Positions 15,452 through 48,782 of a stretch of DNA of 64,000 nt are shown here, piece by piece (the first letter of the stretch is position 1; each line of letters opens with the position of its first letter). Source of the DNA: a virus. Location: positions 16,170 to 80,169 of the IMG/VR virus record IMGVR_UViG_3300042446_001440, one strand, 5' to 3'. The translations under genes were made by a program, and so were the position numbers. The notes under the pieces were generated by a model. It did no database searches. It saw only the letters and a list, made by a program, of their open reading frames with translations, and had not been told where the DNA came from.

Positions 15452-16294
15452 ATGAAAAAACAAGCAGTATTAAGTCTATCTGGTGGAATGGATTCATCCA
15501 CACTATTACTTCATCTATTAGCTGAAGGTTATCAGGTAACAGCATTAGGATTCGATTACGGTCAAAAACACAAAGTAGAATTAGAAAGAGCAAAATCATT
15601 AGTAAAGTATATTAATGACGTTATGTTTGAAAGTAAACGAGACAATTTCGTTAAACATCAAATCATCAAATTAGACGGATTACCTTCACTATTAAATTCA
15701 GCACTAGTAGAAGGTGGAAAAGATGTTCCTGAAGGTCACTACGAACAAGACAACATGAAAGAAACAGTTGTTCCTAATCGTAATAAAATATTCAGTTCAT
15801 TAATTCAAGCAGTAGCATTATCAATTGCAACTACAGGAGATAAGAAAGAAGTAAAAATCGCATTAGGAATTCACGCTGGTGATCATGCTATTTATCCTGA
15901 CTGCAGACAAGAATTTAGAGATGCAGATATGGAAGCATTTAAATTAGGTAACTGGGATAGTGAATTAGTATCATTCTATACTCCATATCTAGATACTGAT
16001 AAATTCGGTATATTACAAGATGGATTAGCAGCATGTAACAAATTAGGGCTTAACTTTGATGAAGTATATAAGCGCACAAATACATCTTATAAACCAATTA
16101 AATTGTCAAAGGATATTTGGTTATCAGATTATAAATCAGCAGCATCAGTAGAACGTGTAGAAGCATTTATTAAATTAGGCAGACCAGATCCTGTACAATA
16201 TGGGGAAGTGGTAGAAGGTAGTGGAATAAGAATAGTAAAATGGGAAGAAGTAAGAGCATCAGTAAAAGAAGTATTAGATGCACACAATTCGTAA
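15452..16294 (+). CDS. queC: 7-cyano-7-deazaguanine (preQ0) synthase
   Basis: SGGMDS PP-loop, FDYGQKH..E, VPNRN and YPDCR. Confidence 0.92.
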   Translation: MKKQAVLSLSGGMDSSTLLLHLLAEGYQVTALGFDYGQKHKVELERAKSLVKYINDVMFESKRDNFVKHQIIKLDGLPSLLNSALVEGGKDVPEGHYEQDNMKETVVPNRNKIFSSLIQAVALSIATTGDKKEVKIALGIHAGDHAIYPDCRQEFRDADMEAFKLGNWDSELVSFYTPYLDTDKFGILQDGLAACNKLGLNFDEVYKRTNTSYKPIKLSKDIWLSDYKSAASVERVEAFIKLGRPDPVQYGEVVEGSGIRIVKWEEVRASVKEVLDAHNS

Positions 16295-27384: not shown

Positions 27385-29016
27385 ATGAGTAAAATAATCA
27401 GTTTCGACCGCGAAGCAAAACAAAGGCTTCAAGCAGGTATCGACAAAGTAAACAAAGCAGTATCCGTTACAATGGGTCCCTTCGGACGTAACGTATTAAT
27501 TGAAAAAGAACATGGCCAAGTAGCATCCACTAAAGATGGAGTTACCGTTTCAAGAACCATTACATTGGAAGATCCAATTGAAAACATGGCGGCTACAGTA
27601 ATTAAACAAGCAGCAGAGAAAACAGTAAGTGCAGCAGGTGATGGAACAACAACATCAACCGTATTAGCTCATTCAATCGCTTCACAAGCTCTAGATGCTA
27701 CATCATACCCATCAACAAACGCAACTCAAGTAAAGCGTGGTATCGAACAAGCAGTTAAAGTAGTAGTAGCGGAATTAAAGAAAATGTCTCGCCCTATCGA
27801 AAGCGAAGATCAAATTAAACAAATCGCTACATTATCAGCTAATGGTGATGCTGAAATAGGTGAATTAGTAGCTACAGCATTAGATAAAGTAGGAAGAGAC
27901 GGAGTCGTTACAGTAGAGGAATCGCGTACTGGGGAAACTAGTTTAGAAGTAGTAGAAGGTATGCAGTTTGATAGAGGTTACAAGTCACACTACATGGTAA
28001 CAGACAACAACACAATGTCTGCTAACCTAGTAGATGCATTAGTATTACTAGTGGATGGTAGAATTTCAGCAGTGAAAGATCTATTACCGATTTTAGAATC
28101 AGTATCTAATGATAATAAATCATTATTGATTATAGCTGAAGATATTGATGGTGAAGCACTAGCAACATTGATTGTAAATAAGATGAGAGGTATTTTGAAG
28201 GTAGCGGCTGTTAAAGCACCTGACTTTGGAGAACGTCGCTTATTAATCTTAGAAGACATTGCAACCATCACAGGTGGAACAGTAGTATCACCTCAAAAGG
28301 GAATGAAATTAGATAAATTCAATAAAACCTGGTTTGGATCTGCACGTACAATTACTGTAGGTAAGGATACAACTACAATTATTGATGGTAAAGGAGATAC
28401 AACAGCAATCGAAACACGTGTATTAGAATTAAAAGCACAAATCGACAAATCAAGTTCACCATATGAAATTGAGAAACTACAAGAGCGCCTAGCTAAAATG
28501 ATTGGTGGAGTAGCTATTATCAATGTAGGAGGAGGAACGGATATTGAGATGAAGGAAAAGAAAGATCGCCTTGATGATGCTCTACAAGCAACACAAGCAG
28601 CATTAGATGAAGGTATATTACCTGGAGCTGGAGTAGCATTATTGAATGCTAGAAAAGCACTTAAAGCAGATCTAGATGGTAAAAATGATATATCTAAAGG
28701 AGTAGCAATAGTGTTTGCAGCTTGTGGAAAACCATTTAAACAAATTCTAGAAAACGCAGGTGAAGATGCTAGTGAATGGTTAATGTCCTTAAACATACAT
28801 AGCGAAAACCTAGATCTAGTACCTGATATTGCAAAAGGAGCAGCAGTAGATGCCTTCGAAGCAGGAATCATTGATCCTACTAAAGTAGTAAGATCAGCAT
28901 TAGAGAATGCAGCTGCAGCAGCAGTAACATTACTGATGACAGAATGTGTAATCCATGATAAACCTGATACTAAGAAAAAGGTAGAAGACTTTGGGATGGC
29001 AGAGATGGGAATGTAA
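27385..29016 (+). CDS. groEL: Chaperonin GroEL
   Basis: [35 protein letters not shown] and EKLQERLAK. Confidence 0.97.
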
Positions 29017-43430: not shown

Positions 43431-43970
43431 ATGGCTACTTCTTCAAAACGCAACGCACCAAAGTTAAGCAGAATTGTAACATTAGGAGAAATTGAGTCAG
43501 AACTTATCAATAATATCATACAATTAATATATGAAATTAATGATGAAGACGCGAAAAAAACGCATGCTGAACCAATTAAGCTCATAATCAACTCACTTGG
43601 AGGCGAAGTGTATAGTGGCCTAGCTTTAATTGATGTCATTGATAGTTCACAGACTCCCGTTTATACAATATGTCATGGTTCATGCATGTCTATGGCGTTA
43701 CCAATATACGCTGCTGGTCACCATAGATTAGCAAGTAAAAATGCTACATTCATGTATCATGAAGCATCATATGCCGCTGAAGGAAAAGTATTACACCATA
43801 AACAAGAATTGAAAGAAACTGATCGTATTGATATATTATGTGATAATTACTTATTATCTAAAACTAAATTCACTCAAAAACAGCTGACAGATATTAAAAA
43901 TAAGCGTGGAGAGTGGTATTTTGATATAAAAGTAGCTACTAAATATGGGCTAGTAAACGAAGTAATTTAA
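43431..43970 (+). CDS. clpP: ClpP-like ATP-dependent protease proteolytic subunit
   Basis: LIINSLGGEV, GSCMSMA (Ser), FMYHE (His) and KYGLVNEVI. Confidence 0.85.
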   Translation: MATSSKRNAPKLSRIVTLGEIESELINNIIQLIYEINDEDAKKTHAEPIKLIINSLGGEVYSGLALIDVIDSSQTPVYTICHGSCMSMALPIYAAGHHRLASKNATFMYHEASYAAEGKVLHHKQELKETDRIDILCDNYLLSKTKFTQKQLTDIKNKRGEWYFDIKVATKYGLVNEVI

Positions 43971-45270: not shown

Positions 45271-45873
45271 ATGCCTGCTGCAAAACCTTTAACTAAGTTT
45301 CAAATAGAAACAGCAATGCGCTACACTAAATCAGTGAGAGCAGCCGCTAAGTATTTAGGATGTTCCTATCATCACCTTAAGCCTTTTATGAAGGTACTTA
45401 GAGTAGATGATTCAGATCCTAATTCACCAACTTTATTTGATGCTCATAAAAATCAAAACGGTAAAGGCATTCCTAAGTTCTTACCTAACAAACGTAAAGA
45501 ACCAAATGTTAAAAATATTATCTTAACAGGTACAGGATGGGAATCATTTACACCTGATAAAATAAAAGTAAGACTAGTAGCTGAGGGTTATTTAAGAGAT
45601 GAATGTTATGTTTGTGGATTTAGTGAACGTAGAGTAACAGACTTTAAAATTCCATTACTCCTACATTTTAAAGATAATAATAAATGTAATTATCTACTTG
45701 ATAATCTAGAGCAAACATGCTATAATTGCTATTATTTATACGTTGGAGAGGTATTAACACCAAGCCAAATACGCAGTGTAGAAGATTCATCACCACCATT
45801 AGCAAAACCATTTGAATGGGACTTAGATGATGAACAAATAGCAAATATGAAGGCATTAGGAATTTTTGAATAA
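45271..45873 (+). CDS. HTH plus degenerate HNH/zinc-finger protein
   Basis: SVRAAAKYLGCSY HTH; CYVCG..LLLHFKDNN..NL...CYNCY. Confidence 0.6.
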   Translation: MPAAKPLTKFQIETAMRYTKSVRAAAKYLGCSYHHLKPFMKVLRVDDSDPNSPTLFDAHKNQNGKGIPKFLPNKRKEPNVKNIILTGTGWESFTPDKIKVRLVAEGYLRDECYVCGFSERRVTDFKIPLLLHFKDNNKCNYLLDNLEQTCYNCYYLYVGEVLTPSQIRSVEDSSPPLAKPFEWDLDDEQIANMKALGIFE

Positions 45874-46187: not shown

Positions 46188-46397
46188 ATGGCACAATTTT
46201 TCCAAGTAAAAGTTCAATTTAGAACAGAAGACGAAAGAGGTAAAGTAAAAAAAGAAAACGTAGCGTATTTAGTAGATGCAATGTCAGTAACAGAAGCAGA
46301 AGCTAGAACAGTACAATATTTAACCGAGCATGGTGAAGAGGCATTTGAAGTAAAAGCAGCATCTGAATCTAAAATCGCTCAGGTAGTAACAGCTTAA
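46188..46397 (+). CDS. DUF4494-like protein (Bacteroidota-type)
   Basis: GKVKKENVAYLVDAMSVTEAEAR. Confidence 0.7.
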   Translation: MAQFFQVKVQFRTEDERGKVKKENVAYLVDAMSVTEAEARTVQYLTEHGEEAFEVKAASESKIAQVVTA

Positions 46398-46407
46398 ACT
46401 TAATAAT

Positions 46408-46509
46408 AGTCAGGTGGCGGAATGGTTGTAGACGCTAGTTGAATGTATTGATTACTTCTGACGCATTCGATGAACAAATAATTGCTAGGTTCAAATCCTG
46501 CCCTGACTA
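46408..46509 (+). ncRNA. tRNA-like RNA with non-canonical anticodon arm
   Basis: Acceptor AGTCAGG/CCTGACT+A, D arm GCG..CGC and T loop GGTTCAAATCC. The central arm has a 16-nt loop instead of an anticodon loop. Confidence 0.65.
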
Positions 46510-46514
46510 CAAAA

Positions 46515-46630
46515 TCGTTCGAACGTGGAACGACGAAGACGGCCGTGGCATACCGTAAGATCTGCTCGCTTAGTGGCTCCGTATCGTAGGACGGCACAGT
46601 TAGCAACTCTGGTGGTATTCTAAAAGTTGC
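46515..46630 (+). ncRNA. Candidate structured ncRNA A (tRNA-array spacer)
   Basis: GC-rich; stems TCGTTC/GAACGA, GCCGT/ACGGC and GCAACT/AGTTGC. Confidence 0.4.
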
Positions 46631-46634
46631 AAAC

Positions 46635-46707
46635 TCCAGAATAGCTCAGTTGGTAGAGCAGCTGATTTGTAATCAGCAGGTCGCAAGTTCGACTCTTGTT
46701 TCTGGAT
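46635..46707 (+). tRNA. tRNA-Thr(TGT)
   Basis: Acceptor TCCAGAA/TTCTGGA; anticodon arm GCTGA-TTTGTAA-TCAGC; T loop GTTCGACTC. Confidence 0.92.
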
Positions 46708-46710
46708 CAA

Positions 46711-46807
46711 GGATGAGAGAATACAAAGTAGCAGCACCCGTCATCATGTGTAACTCGTGGTGCCAACTACCAGTAACTTTGTTTGGTTGGCCAACCGAAC
46801 CTCATCT
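46711..46807 (+). ncRNA. Candidate structured ncRNA B
   Basis: Nested stems GGATGAG/CTCATCT, ACAAAGT/ACTTTGT and GCACC/GGTGC, plus hairpin TTGGTTG/CAACCGA. Confidence 0.5.
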
Positions 46808-46812
46808 TTATT

Positions 46813-46899
46813 GGAAGAGTAGCCAAGCGGTTGACGGCACCTGACTTGAAATCAGACATACGGGAAACTGTATCGTGGGTTCGAATCCTACCTCTTCCG
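46813..46899 (+). tRNA. tRNA-Ser(TGA)
   Basis: Acceptor GGAAGAG/CTCTTCC+G; anticodon loop CTTGAAA; long variable arm; GGTTCGAATCC. Confidence 0.92.
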
Positions 46900-46904
46900 C
46901 AGCT

Positions 46905-46975
46905 TGGGTTATGGTGTAATGGCAACACTACAGATTTTGATTCTGTCGTTTTAGGTTCGAGTCCTGGTAACCCAA
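46905..46975 (+). tRNA. tRNA-Gln(TTG)
   Basis: Acceptor TGGGTTA/TAACCCA; ACAGA-TTTTGAT-TCTGT; GGTTCGAGTCC. Confidence 0.92.
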
Positions 46976-46976
46976 C

Positions 46977-47109
46977 AAAAAGAACTAGCAAACAAATGAC
47001 ACGCACGGCAGCCTGGAATGTGTGCACACTGAACAGGCAATGCGAACGAAGAGGATGGGATACCTCACTGTGCGTAGGTTAGATTCAACGCCCGTCGCTA
47101 GTTCTTTTT
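46977..47109 (+). ncRNA. Candidate structured ncRNA C (multi-branch, possible pseudoknot)
   Basis: Perfect 13-bp closing stem; inner stems ACGCACGG/CTGTGCGT, GCCTG/CAGGC and GAGG/CCTC. Confidence 0.6.
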
Positions 47110-47115
47110 TTACAT

Positions 47116-47275
47116 TGTAGGATGGTGAAATGCTCTAGAGCTTGGAATACACAGCGCCCCGTCTAGGCGCCGCGGATCACGAAATAGATAAATGATAATG
47201 GGTTGACCACACGCTTGCAAGCACAAATGTCATTTATTGAATCGCCGTATGGAGGTTCAAATCCTTCTCCTACAG
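47116..47275 (+). ncRNA. 160-nt tRNA-Asp(GTC)-like RNA with D-loop hairpin and ~80-nt variable-arm insertion
   Basis: Acceptor TGTAGGA/TCCTACA+G; anticodon arm GCGCC-CCGTCTA-GGCGC; T arm GGAGG-TTCAAAT-CCTTC. Confidence 0.7.
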
Positions 47276-47280
47276 CTAAA

Positions 47281-47422
47281 GAGGATAAAATGTGTAGTAA
47301 CCTCAAGGAAGCTAGCTCCTACTACACTCTTTAAGTGTTACCCAAAGGGTAAACGCACTGGTATGAGACTTGTTCTCTCAAACTCGATACCTAAAGTTGA
47401 GCTGTCAATTGAAAGATTGACT
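47281..47422 (+). ncRNA. Candidate structured ncRNA D
   Basis: Stems GTGTAGTA/TACTACAC, TTACCC/GGGTAA, GGTAT/ATACC and GTCAATT-GAAA-GATTGAC. Confidence 0.45.
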
Positions 47423-47426
47423 TAAT

Positions 47427-47512
47427 GCCCCGGTGGTGGAACTGGTAGACACGCAGGACTTAAAATCCTGTTCGCTGTAAGGCGAGTGACGGTTCGATTC
47501 CGTTCTAGGGCA
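47427..47512 (+). tRNA. tRNA-Leu(TAA)
   Basis: CAGGA-CTTAAAA-TCCTG; Leu-type D arm GGTGGAACTGGTAGACAC; variable arm; GGTTCGATTCC. Confidence 0.9.
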
Positions 47513-47525
47513 CATAATTATAATC

Positions 47526-47843
47526 ATGGCATGTCATTGTTTACATCTGAAAAACGCAAGCGAATTCTACACGTTACTTAAACAACGTGACCCCGATTTA
47601 ATCAAGAAAATGGTTAAATGTGTAATGAGCGCATATAAGCGAAATAAAGCAGATATTGATATATTTGATATCACATTCAAAGACATGAGCGAATTGACAT
47701 TTAATATTGAAAGATCACAGTACAGCGAATTACTCAGCAATTGTCTTAAAGACATGATTGAAATAGAAGAGTACGAATTATGTGCTGAGATTAAGAAAAT
47801 AATAGATAAAAAATCAAAACACGGGGATGGCATAGGCATTTGA
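47526..47843 (+). CDS. Protein with C-terminal UVR-like motif, paralogue of 44308..44625
   Basis: EIEEYELCAEIKKII; last 21 nt overlap the tmRNA 5' end. Confidence 0.6.
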   Translation: MACHCLHLKNASEFYTLLKQRDPDLIKKMVKCVMSAYKRNKADIDIFDITFKDMSELTFNIERSQYSELLSNCLKDMIEIEEYELCAEIKKIIDKKSKHGDGIGI

Positions 47844-48292
47844 TCCGTATGAGATGGGTATGTATACACGCAGAGACATGGCATTCATTCTCTTTAATCA
47901 TGATGCAAACAATTTAAACGACAACAAAATCGCTCGTCAAGAAATCGGTGCTTCTATTATCAACATGGCTTTTGCTAGAGTTGCTATGGCTGCCTAAGAT
48001 CTTCGGATCTTTCTTTCCCTGGCAACTTGGGTGAAACAGTAAGTTGCAAAAAATTCCACTTTGGGGAGTAGGGTGTTCATCTACCCGACGCCCACCAGGT
48101 TGGGGATGTACGACCATAACACGTCCGTGGAGCTGATGAAAATGTTTTTCTAGTTATGTCAAAACTAGATGGTGGACTGTTACCAAATCGGTAGCCCTAA
48201 CATACGGTGCAGTAGCAATACAGTACTAAGCGTGTGAGAAGCTGTACATATTTGTACTTACGGAGACGAGGGTTCGAACCCCTCCATCTCCA
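47823..48292 (+). ncRNA. ssrA: tmRNA (transfer-messenger RNA)
   Basis: GGGGATG/CATCTCC+A acceptor with G3:U; T arm GAGGGTTCGAACCCCTC; tag ORF 47920-47997 (A)DNKIARQEIGASIINMAFARVAMAA*. Confidence 0.9.
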
Positions 48293-48335
48293 CTCATCTC
48301 CCCCTGTTCTCATATATTTATTGGAAACAATAATT

Positions 48336-48782
48336 ATGAAAACAGGGACTAAGGAGTATTATGCCAATTATTATGAGCAAAACAAAGAAGAACATAATTT
48401 TAAGTCTATAGAGTGGCAATCTCAAAATAAAGATAAGGCATTAGAATCCGTTAAAAAATGGAAAGGAAAGAATGCAGATAAAGTAAGAGAATGGGATAGA
48501 TTACGGAAACAACAACAAAATAAAGAACGTAGACAATTTGTAAATGAATATAAATTAACATGTTCTTGTAAAAAATGTGGCGATATTAGACCATATGTCT
48601 TAGATTTTCACCACTTGGACCCTTCAGCCAAATCGTTTGACTTAGGTAATGCTTCCAAATATAATATATCTAAATTAAAATTAGAATTAGAAAAATGTAT
48701 TACATTATGCAGAAATTGCCATAGTGAATTTCATTATTTTGAAAAAAAACAAAATATAATTATTACGGAGTATGTAAAATAA
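48336..48782 (+). mobile_element. HNH homing endonuclease immediately downstream of tmRNA
   Basis: CKKCG..VLDFHHLDP..K..LEKCITLCRNCHSEFH; ATG 48336 follows the shared endonuclease leader. Confidence 0.8.

Follow-up and report, generated by a model that had tools for sequence, protein, structure and literature searches.

Structured RNA modules and tRNA-shaped carriers interspersed among the tRNA genes of a freshwater phage

The window analyzed here is a 64,000-nucleotide (nt) stretch of DNA, positions 16,170 to 80,169 of IMG/VR virus record IMGVR_UViG_3300042446_001440. The record spans 80 kilobases (kb) and has a completeness estimate of approximately 49%; its relatives are contigs of 130 to 180 kb, and the sequencing runs that contain the stretch are lake and freshwater metagenomes. 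At 46408-47513 lies an island of four canonical transfer RNAs (tRNAs), two aberrant tRNA-shaped RNAs (tl1 and tl2), and four non-tRNA spacers. ARAGORN and Rfam agreed that Thr, Ser, Gln, and Leu are the only tRNAs of the whole 80-kb record. The elements of the island stand in exactly the order listed in the original prediction, which had described a tRNA array interleaved with structured spacer RNAs. The features are as follows (bp, base pairs).

46408-46510, + strand: tl1, a tRNA-Leu-shaped carrier with acceptor strands AGTCAGG/CCTGACT, a class-II D-arm, a T-arm, and A73
46511-46634, + strand: spacer A
46514-46631, + strand: RNA A (16 distinct sequences, alignment A4)
46635-46708, + strand: tRNA-Thr(UGU), called by ARAGORN and Rfam
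46709-46812, + strand: spacer B
46711-46809, + strand: RNA B, with closing stem GAUGAG/CUCAUC, an inner CACCCG/CG-GGUG arm, and a near-palindromic hairpin
46813-46900, + strand: tRNA-Ser(UGA), called by ARAGORN and Rfam
46905-46976, + strand: tRNA-Gln(UUG), called by ARAGORN and Rfam
46977-47115, + strand: spacer C
46977-47111, + strand: RNA C, with outer stem P0 (46977-46989/47097-47109) followed by a T-run
47001-47006/47070-47075, + strand: P1 of the RNA C core, followed by the P2-P3 hairpin and by P4 at 47055-47059/47091-47095 (alignment A2)
47116-47275, + strand: tl2, a 160-nt tRNA-Asp-like RNA with a 7-bp acceptor, a T-arm, and G73
47277-47426, + strand: spacer D
47277-47328, + strand: RNA D1, a 52-nt predicted pseudoknot (alignment A3)
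47281-84/47301-04, + strand: helix S1 of D1, with S2 at 47292-98/47321-27 and hairpin S3 at 47306-47320
47331-47426, + strand: RNA D2, three hairpins directly upstream of tRNA-Leu
47427-47513, + strand: tRNA-Leu(UAA), called by ARAGORN and Rfam

The GC content of the island was 0.42 to 0.56 in 100-nt windows, as compared with approximately 0.25 to 0.37 in the flanking genes (genome, approximately 30%), which bears out the description of the spacers as GC-rich in an AT-rich genome. Their close contact with the tRNAs was also as described, the modules filling the gaps between two tRNA-type elements to within 0 to 6 nt. Strong structure had been ascribed to all four spacers; in single-sequence folding, three of them outperformed shuffled sequences (B, z = -2.3; C, z = -3.1; D, z = -3.1), and A did not. 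Because B, C, and D beat the shuffles and A does not, folding energy alone is weak evidence. The homolog comparison that had been proposed as a check yielded compensatory changes in A, C, and D1, and this comparative evidence is stronger than single-sequence folding. The spacers had been called undescribed, and a search of positions 46300-48500 against Rfam 15 (cmscan, E ≤ 10) found no family in any of them, returning only tRNAs, transfer-messenger RNA (tmRNA), and chance matches. Matches in a blastn search of 50,697 cultured-phage records were confined to the tRNA parts.

Related loci were retrieved using the upstream gene (46188-46397; 38 loci) and the open reading frame (ORF) at 47526-47843 (6 loci, with partial overlap) as queries, which gave 44 loci of the same phage group. 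These shared a frame consisting of a DUF4494-like gene, a variable RNA island, tl2, tRNA-Leu(UAA), an ORF of 105 amino acids (aa), and tmRNA. Within the island, phages differed in which tRNAs and non-tRNA blocks were present and in how these were ordered. Blocks A, B, and C and the first approximately 52 nt of D recurred singly in some relatives and at changed positions; A, B, C, and D1 are therefore separate modules. The count of four spacer RNAs thus held for A, B, and C, whereas "RNA D" proved to be two modules, D1 and D2, that are found apart in other phages. A same-strand tRNA or tRNA-like element lay within 60 nt of 28 of the 46 unique copies of C, 13 of 16 copies of A, and every copy of D1 (15/15) and B (9/9), and no unique copy of these four modules had an opposite-strand tRNA within 400 nt. 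The same module adjoined different tRNAs in different phages. These data support the view that the spacers are independent, conserved, and probably structured RNA modules tied to tRNA arrays. At the level of sequence comparison, the existence, conservation, modularity, and tRNA-array association of the modules are demonstrated, as are covarying folds for A, C, D1, and tl2.

RNA C was retrieved with a 19-nt core pattern that matched 58 IMG/VR contigs and, with the window copy included, provided the 45 distinct sequences of alignment A2 (46 unique copies were found across the loci examined). Its consensus consists of P1 (ACGCAC/GUGCGU), then the extended P2-P3 hairpin, and then P4, the 5′ strand of which precedes the invariant AUACCUCAC and the 3′ strand of which follows GUGCGUAGGUAAG. 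P4 encloses the 3′ strand of P1, and RNA C is therefore a predicted pseudoknot. All five pairs of P4 showed compensatory changes, with 99.6% of cells paired (22 to 40% in slid controls), and P2 and P3 also covaried. P1 and a possible helix between strands ACCU (47062-65) and AGGU (47076-79) showed no variation, partly because the copies were retrieved by the core pattern. A covariance-model search found no divergent copies beyond the exact 19-nt core. The topology of RNA C presumably resembles the group I P3/P7 core, and a 14-nt stretch presumably resembles part of 23S ribosomal RNA; neither likeness is relied on here. Copies of RNA C in the window and several further phages were closed by the outer stem and its T-run, and in other phages a 3′ hairpin was found instead; where present, the stem and T-run may allow RNA C to double as a mid-array transcription terminator. 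An A-run precedes the 5′ strand of the outer stem, an arrangement also seen in several other phages.

Homologs of RNA C were found in three high-GC alphaproteobacterial metagenome-assembled genomes (MAGs; 63 to 67% GC), at L239:1380-1500 (- strand), L242:380-640, and L243:4950-5210. Their neighbors were unrelated housekeeping genes (one contig is 287 kb long) that offered no functional clue. In these copies P2 (GGA/UCC) and P4 (GGCCA/UGGCC) were altered in compensatory fashion, the RNA sat within a larger structure of approximately 250 nt, and an intrinsic terminator followed in two of the three; the loci had no Rfam match. Occurrence was sporadic, the order-level search yielding 2 of 151 alphaproteobacterial genomes, one of them doubtful. 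RNA C also occurred as the cargo of a tRNA-shaped carrier in one phage locus (L180:1039-1198). Given its presence in phages and in a few bacteria, RNA C is best regarded as a free-standing RNA class; because it appears both as cargo and as a stand-alone chromosomal gene, tRNA neighbors are not needed, which fits action in trans.

A pattern taken from the 3′ half of RNA A matched 16 contigs (one of 344 kb), and in all 16 the copy lay inside a tRNA array. RNA A opens with a 5′ hairpin and a conserved CGAAGA; these are followed by a variable domain that Pb closes, by hairpin Pd (CCGW/WCGG), and by a 3′ element built on the 3-bp helix Pe. Compensatory changes were observed in Pb, Pd, and Pe, the last occurring as CAG/CUG, AUG/CAU, CUG/CAG, UUG/CAA, and AAG/CUU. 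The 9-nt loop of Pe contains a GCAAC that can pair with a GUUGC located beyond an A-rich stretch, a complementarity that was invariant in 15 of the 16 sequences, and the 3′ end is accordingly drawn as a predicted H-type pseudoknot.

The tRNA-Asp-like element tl2 was found in 25 related loci, and 19 sequences were aligned (alignment A1); the first IMG/VR pattern used for it (GGGTTGACCAC..AATC) lacked specificity, most of its matches being noise. Compensatory changes affected 27 of 41 pairs, distributed over the acceptor, the D-stem, the anticodon-like stem, the T-stem, and an 8-bp stem of the extra arm. The variable arm of approximately 75 nt carries an 11-nt invariant GGGUUGACCAC (47200-47210). 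The anticodon-like loop, CCGUCUA in the window (47159-47165, with GUC at 47161-63, C33, and U37), had the consensus YCGUCUM, with C33, G34, U35, C36, and U37 invariant. The tRNA-Asp identity set consists of G73, G34, U35, C36, and C38 and, in bacteria, G1-C72 and G2-C71 (PMC9976931). In tl2, G2-C71 was invariant, G73 was present in 18 of 19 sequences, and C38 was present in most (A38 in the window), but the 1-72 pair was U-A rather than G-C. As aligned, tl2 keeps most aspartate identity determinants while its predicted loop departs from those of decoding tRNAs. It did not match the Rfam tRNA model, and U33 and purine 37 are absent; decoding is doubtful because the universal U33 is missing and the extra arm is approximately 75 nt long. 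Palindromes were observed in the extra-arm hairpin (47213-47222; 18/19 sequences) and in a hairpin inserted in the D-loop (47132-47141; 13/19). Intron-tolerant ARAGORN labeled tl1 "Asp" and tl2 "Pro"; these calls were rejected as relaxed-threshold artefacts that conflict with the covariation.

D1 was retrieved with a degenerate pattern from 19 contigs, which contained 16 distinct sequences. In these, all 256 cells of the 16 proposed pairs were standard (100% paired), as compared with 26 to 56% in slid controls, and 7 of the 16 pairs, distributed over S1, the pseudoknot helix S2, and hairpin S3, showed compensatory changes. The start of D1 was always 1 to 2 nt past a discriminator base, which belonged to a tRNA, a carrier, or tl2. 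We take its fold to be similar to preQ1-II-type pseudoknots, although nothing here relies on that similarity. The apical 6 nt (47311-47316 in the window) formed a perfect palindrome in 16 of 16 sequences (GCUAGC, GGUACC, CCUAGG, GAUAUC, or GACGUC), the compensatory changes reaching the central dinucleotide, which is unpairable within one hairpin. Such palindromes suggest that two molecules pair with each other or, alternatively, that a constraint or mutational bias acts at the DNA level. RNA B, of which eight distinct copies were found (82% column identity), was flush between tRNA-type elements in all of them; its hairpin has a palindrome at 46790-46801. Palindromic hairpins ranged from 6 to 14 nt, were perfect including their centers, and differed in sequence between phages. 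Their presence in D1, tl2, and RNA B suggests that dimers, or else a templated mutational process, may be involved.

The first element of the island, tl1, belongs to a large family of tRNA-Leu-shaped carriers. Its middle is a non-anticodon cargo of approximately 50 nt that lacks a 7-nt anticodon loop, and it scored 28.9 bits against RF00005, just below the cut-off of 29. Across the loci examined, we found 175 unique carrier versions of 55 to 280 nt (37 with unrelated middles in the first loci alone), all with the near-invariant frame AGTCAGG-UG-GCGGAAUUGGUAGACGC ... CCUGACU-A. The middles were hypervariable (20 to 200 nt), 174 of them forming 149 clusters. Since the same frame holds unrelated middles, it behaves as a carrier for swappable cargo. 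The 3′ frame motif occurred in at least 120 IMG/VR contigs, with up to 7 copies per 5 kb among the matches listed (L281). The family is also represented at L180:458-1198, where the middle of one carrier is RNA C itself. Default ARAGORN made tRNA calls for 46 of the 175 carriers, with scattered and often nonsensical anticodons. Leucyl-tRNA synthetase does not read the anticodon, its identity elements being A73, A14, and the class-II D-arm (PMC9976931). The carriers have A14 and mostly A73, in a tRNA-Leu-type core; because the synthetase ignores the anticodon, leucylation of the carriers is conceivable.

We interpret the locus as a stable-RNA operon of a large lake phage, in which the tRNA-type elements are cut apart and passenger RNAs are thereby delivered, and we give this interpretation a probability of approximately 0.7. 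The tRNAs, the tRNA-shaped carriers, and the free-standing RNAs, three of them pseudoknotted, would most likely be co-transcribed from one strand. The host tRNA-maturation enzymes would then process the transcript, ribonuclease (RNase) P cutting at the 5′ end of each tRNA or tRNA-like element and RNase Z or another 3′ trimming activity acting past each discriminator base. Release would yield discrete passengers of approximately 50 to 160 nt, namely A, B, C, D1, D2, the tl1 cargo, and the tl2 extra arm, which would be independent modules exchanged between phages. In the infected cell they would act in trans as protein-binding or self-associating RNAs and, more speculatively, might adjust host translation or RNA-targeting defenses. 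That tRNA-type elements punctuate a transcript that probably also delivers other small RNAs is well supported by the genomic evidence. The punctuation proposed in the original prediction stood insofar as the modules recur in shuffled order, co-oriented, and mostly flush with tRNAs; their release as discrete RNAs is the part that we infer, and the functions suggested there (RNase decoys, antitoxin mimics, or ribozymes) are speculative.

Metatranscriptome contigs from four lake runs covered parts of the island. One over 46291-46543 had no differences, one with RNA A had two (RNA A being joined directly to tl2 there), a tl1 copy in another context also had two, and coverage of tl2, D1, and D2 had three to six. 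These contigs are a weak hint that the island is transcribed, and no weight attaches to the gaps in their coverage. Several observations weigh against the operon interpretation. The RNA-library contigs had a depth of 2 to 6, RNA ends were not readable in them, and DNA carry-over is possible; no promoter stands out upstream of the island. The 13-bp outer stem and T-run of RNA C (47097-47115) could terminate transcription in the middle of the array. RNA A by itself folds no better than shuffled sequences (z = -0.66). The three-helix fold of RNA B had 95% of cells paired but compensatory changes in two pairs only, and D2 had a single homolog (L171), also directly before tRNA-Leu(UAA), in an unrelated array. 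Finally, no partner protein or target of a passenger was identified.

It is unlikely that the spacers are instead cis-acting elements of tRNA expression (processing guides, insulators, attenuators, or terminators) with no later role. They do adjoin tRNAs, and such a function would suit the T-run that follows the RNA C outer stem here and in several other phages, but the invariant or covarying loops and pseudoknots found across distant contigs far exceed what an insulator needs. Moreover, one module can stand beside different tRNAs, and RNA C occurs in bacterial chromosomes without tRNA neighbors and with its own terminator.

We consider it quite improbable that the modules include undescribed self-cleaving ribozymes (D1 or C, for example) that lie immediately 3′ of tRNA-type elements and help to cut the array. 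In favor are the frequency of small ribozymes in phages, the compact predicted pseudoknot of D1, which starts 1 to 2 nt after a discriminator base, and the core of RNA C, a nested pseudoknot whose joining strands are invariant. However, no Rfam match was found at E ≤ 10, including hammerhead, twister, twister-sister, pistol, hatchet, and HDV-like families, no cleavage-site signature was identified, and a tRNA 3′ end carrying a cyclic phosphate would be expected to impede CCA addition. The notion that the spacers are functionless decayed tRNA genes or mobile-element scars is very improbable and already disfavored: the island does have HNH-type endonuclease genes on both sides, and relatives differ greatly in what their arrays contain, but the spacers contain no cloverleaf remnant, compensatory change preserves their folds, and long stretches are invariant across phage groups, for RNA C even into bacterial chromosomes.

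The operon interpretation can be extended to the doubtful but possible proposal that phage tRNA arrays serve to express a large and rapidly evolving arsenal of small RNAs and are, in this sense, the RNA equivalent of protein anti-defense islands. If so, one part of the arsenal would be a near-invariant tRNA-Leu-shaped carrier displaying hundreds of unrelated cargoes. A second part would be the free-standing RNAs, three of them pseudoknotted and some with palindromic loops that might promote assembly into homodimers or cage-like particles. At least RNA C, among the members, would be common to phages and bacterial chromosomes.

This type of locus is already known, from rnaC and rnaD of phage T4 and from GOLLD and ROOL near tRNA islands. 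In the T4 record, two small stable RNAs, rnaC (species 1, 139 nt) and rnaD (species 2, 119 nt), are annotated 2 to 6 nt from tRNA-Arg; like them, the window spacers are non-tRNA RNAs on the tRNA strand that abut tRNAs. The end of T4 rnaC has a T-arm and acceptor-like pairing, as do those of tl1 and tl2, and it therefore resembles the carrier design. The T4 cluster also contains the homing endonuclease gene segB, and endonuclease genes likewise occur at the island, although here they are flanking HNH genes. Unlike in T4, the window has more families, three of them pseudoknotted and one also present in bacterial chromosomes. Hidden Markov models of A, B, C, D1, and D2 had no match in T4 positions 69000-74000 (nhmmer, E ≤ 10). 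ROOL and GOLLD are phage and prophage RNAs that often lie near tRNA islands and form homo-oligomeric cages (PMC12286853). The modules share with them their location by phage tRNA islands, and the palindromic loops of D1 and tl2 hint at possible self-association; however, GOLLD and ROOL exceed 500 nt, whereas the modules are 50 to 160 nt long and have no Rfam match.

Tethering of small RNAs to tRNAs has a viral precedent in the tRNA-microRNA units of murine gammaherpesvirus 68. The tRNA scaffold engineered for RNA expression by Ponchon and Dardel (see PMC3753655) is similar to the tl1 family, in which a frame of acceptor, D-arm, and T-arm has its anticodon arm replaced by foreign RNA. In the scaffold, such a frame gives processing and stability. 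Unlike it, the carriers are natural, phage-encoded, and of tRNA-Leu type, and their frame may stabilize or release the cargo. Phage tRNAs with altered anticodon loops evade tRNA-targeting defenses (PMC10264068, PMC11555353). The tRNA-Asp-like frame of tl2 recalls these in keeping GUC while C33 and U37 are altered, and by analogy tl2 could be a nuclease-resistant tRNA or a decoy; however, the defense-evading tRNAs are ordinary-sized and decoding, unlike tl2 with its approximately 75-nt extra arm and no U33. Thousands of unnamed candidate structured RNAs, tRNA-like ones included, have been reported from IMG/VR (PMC10690425), and some of these may be the window families. Neither the families themselves nor their predicted pseudoknot folds appear to have been catalogued, and the same holds for the bacterial relatives of RNA C and for the scale on which the carrier-with-cargo design occurs.

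The role of phage tRNA clusters and of their extra stable RNAs, such as T4 species 1 and 2, is a question approximately 50 years old. The locus offers compact RNA families with covarying folds, a natural tRNA-scaffold design, and swappable cargo. The sizes of the modules suit direct biochemistry (processing, dimerization, aminoacylation, pull-downs, and structure), which makes the old question testable, and the families could enter RNA family catalogues.

The genes of the window include those for a DnaB-like helicase, a family-B DNA polymerase, ribonucleotide reductase, a RecA-like protein, a clamp-loader-like ATPase, GroEL, a ClpP-like protease, and glycosyltransferases, and because of this gene content the virus was identified as a large tailed phage. 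No RNA-processing enzyme was recognized among the 30 window proteins scanned against Pfam. The host is indicated by only weak hints, the DUF4494 gene upstream of the island and an identical contig binned in a Flavobacteriales MAG. The DUF4494-like protein (46188-46397; 69 aa) matches only the N-terminal half of the domain (residues 1 to 65 of 139); its gene had the same length in the 38 related loci and was always directly upstream of the RNA island. HNH-type endonuclease genes lie on either side of the island, at 45271-45873 and at about 48300-48782, and they may drive the shuffling of RNA modules.

Downstream of the island lies the tmRNA (47823-48295; approximately 470 nt; Rfam, 61.9 bits), the 5′ end of which is overlapped by the upstream 105-aa ORF by approximately 20 nt. 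Its tag reading frame is long and ends in ...AMAA. ARAGORN placed the tmRNAs of the relatives at the same position, with tags ending in ADYAVAA or ANEYALAA. The GroEL-type chaperonin (27385-29016) and the ClpP-like protease (43431-43970) are encoded in the same window as this tmRNA.

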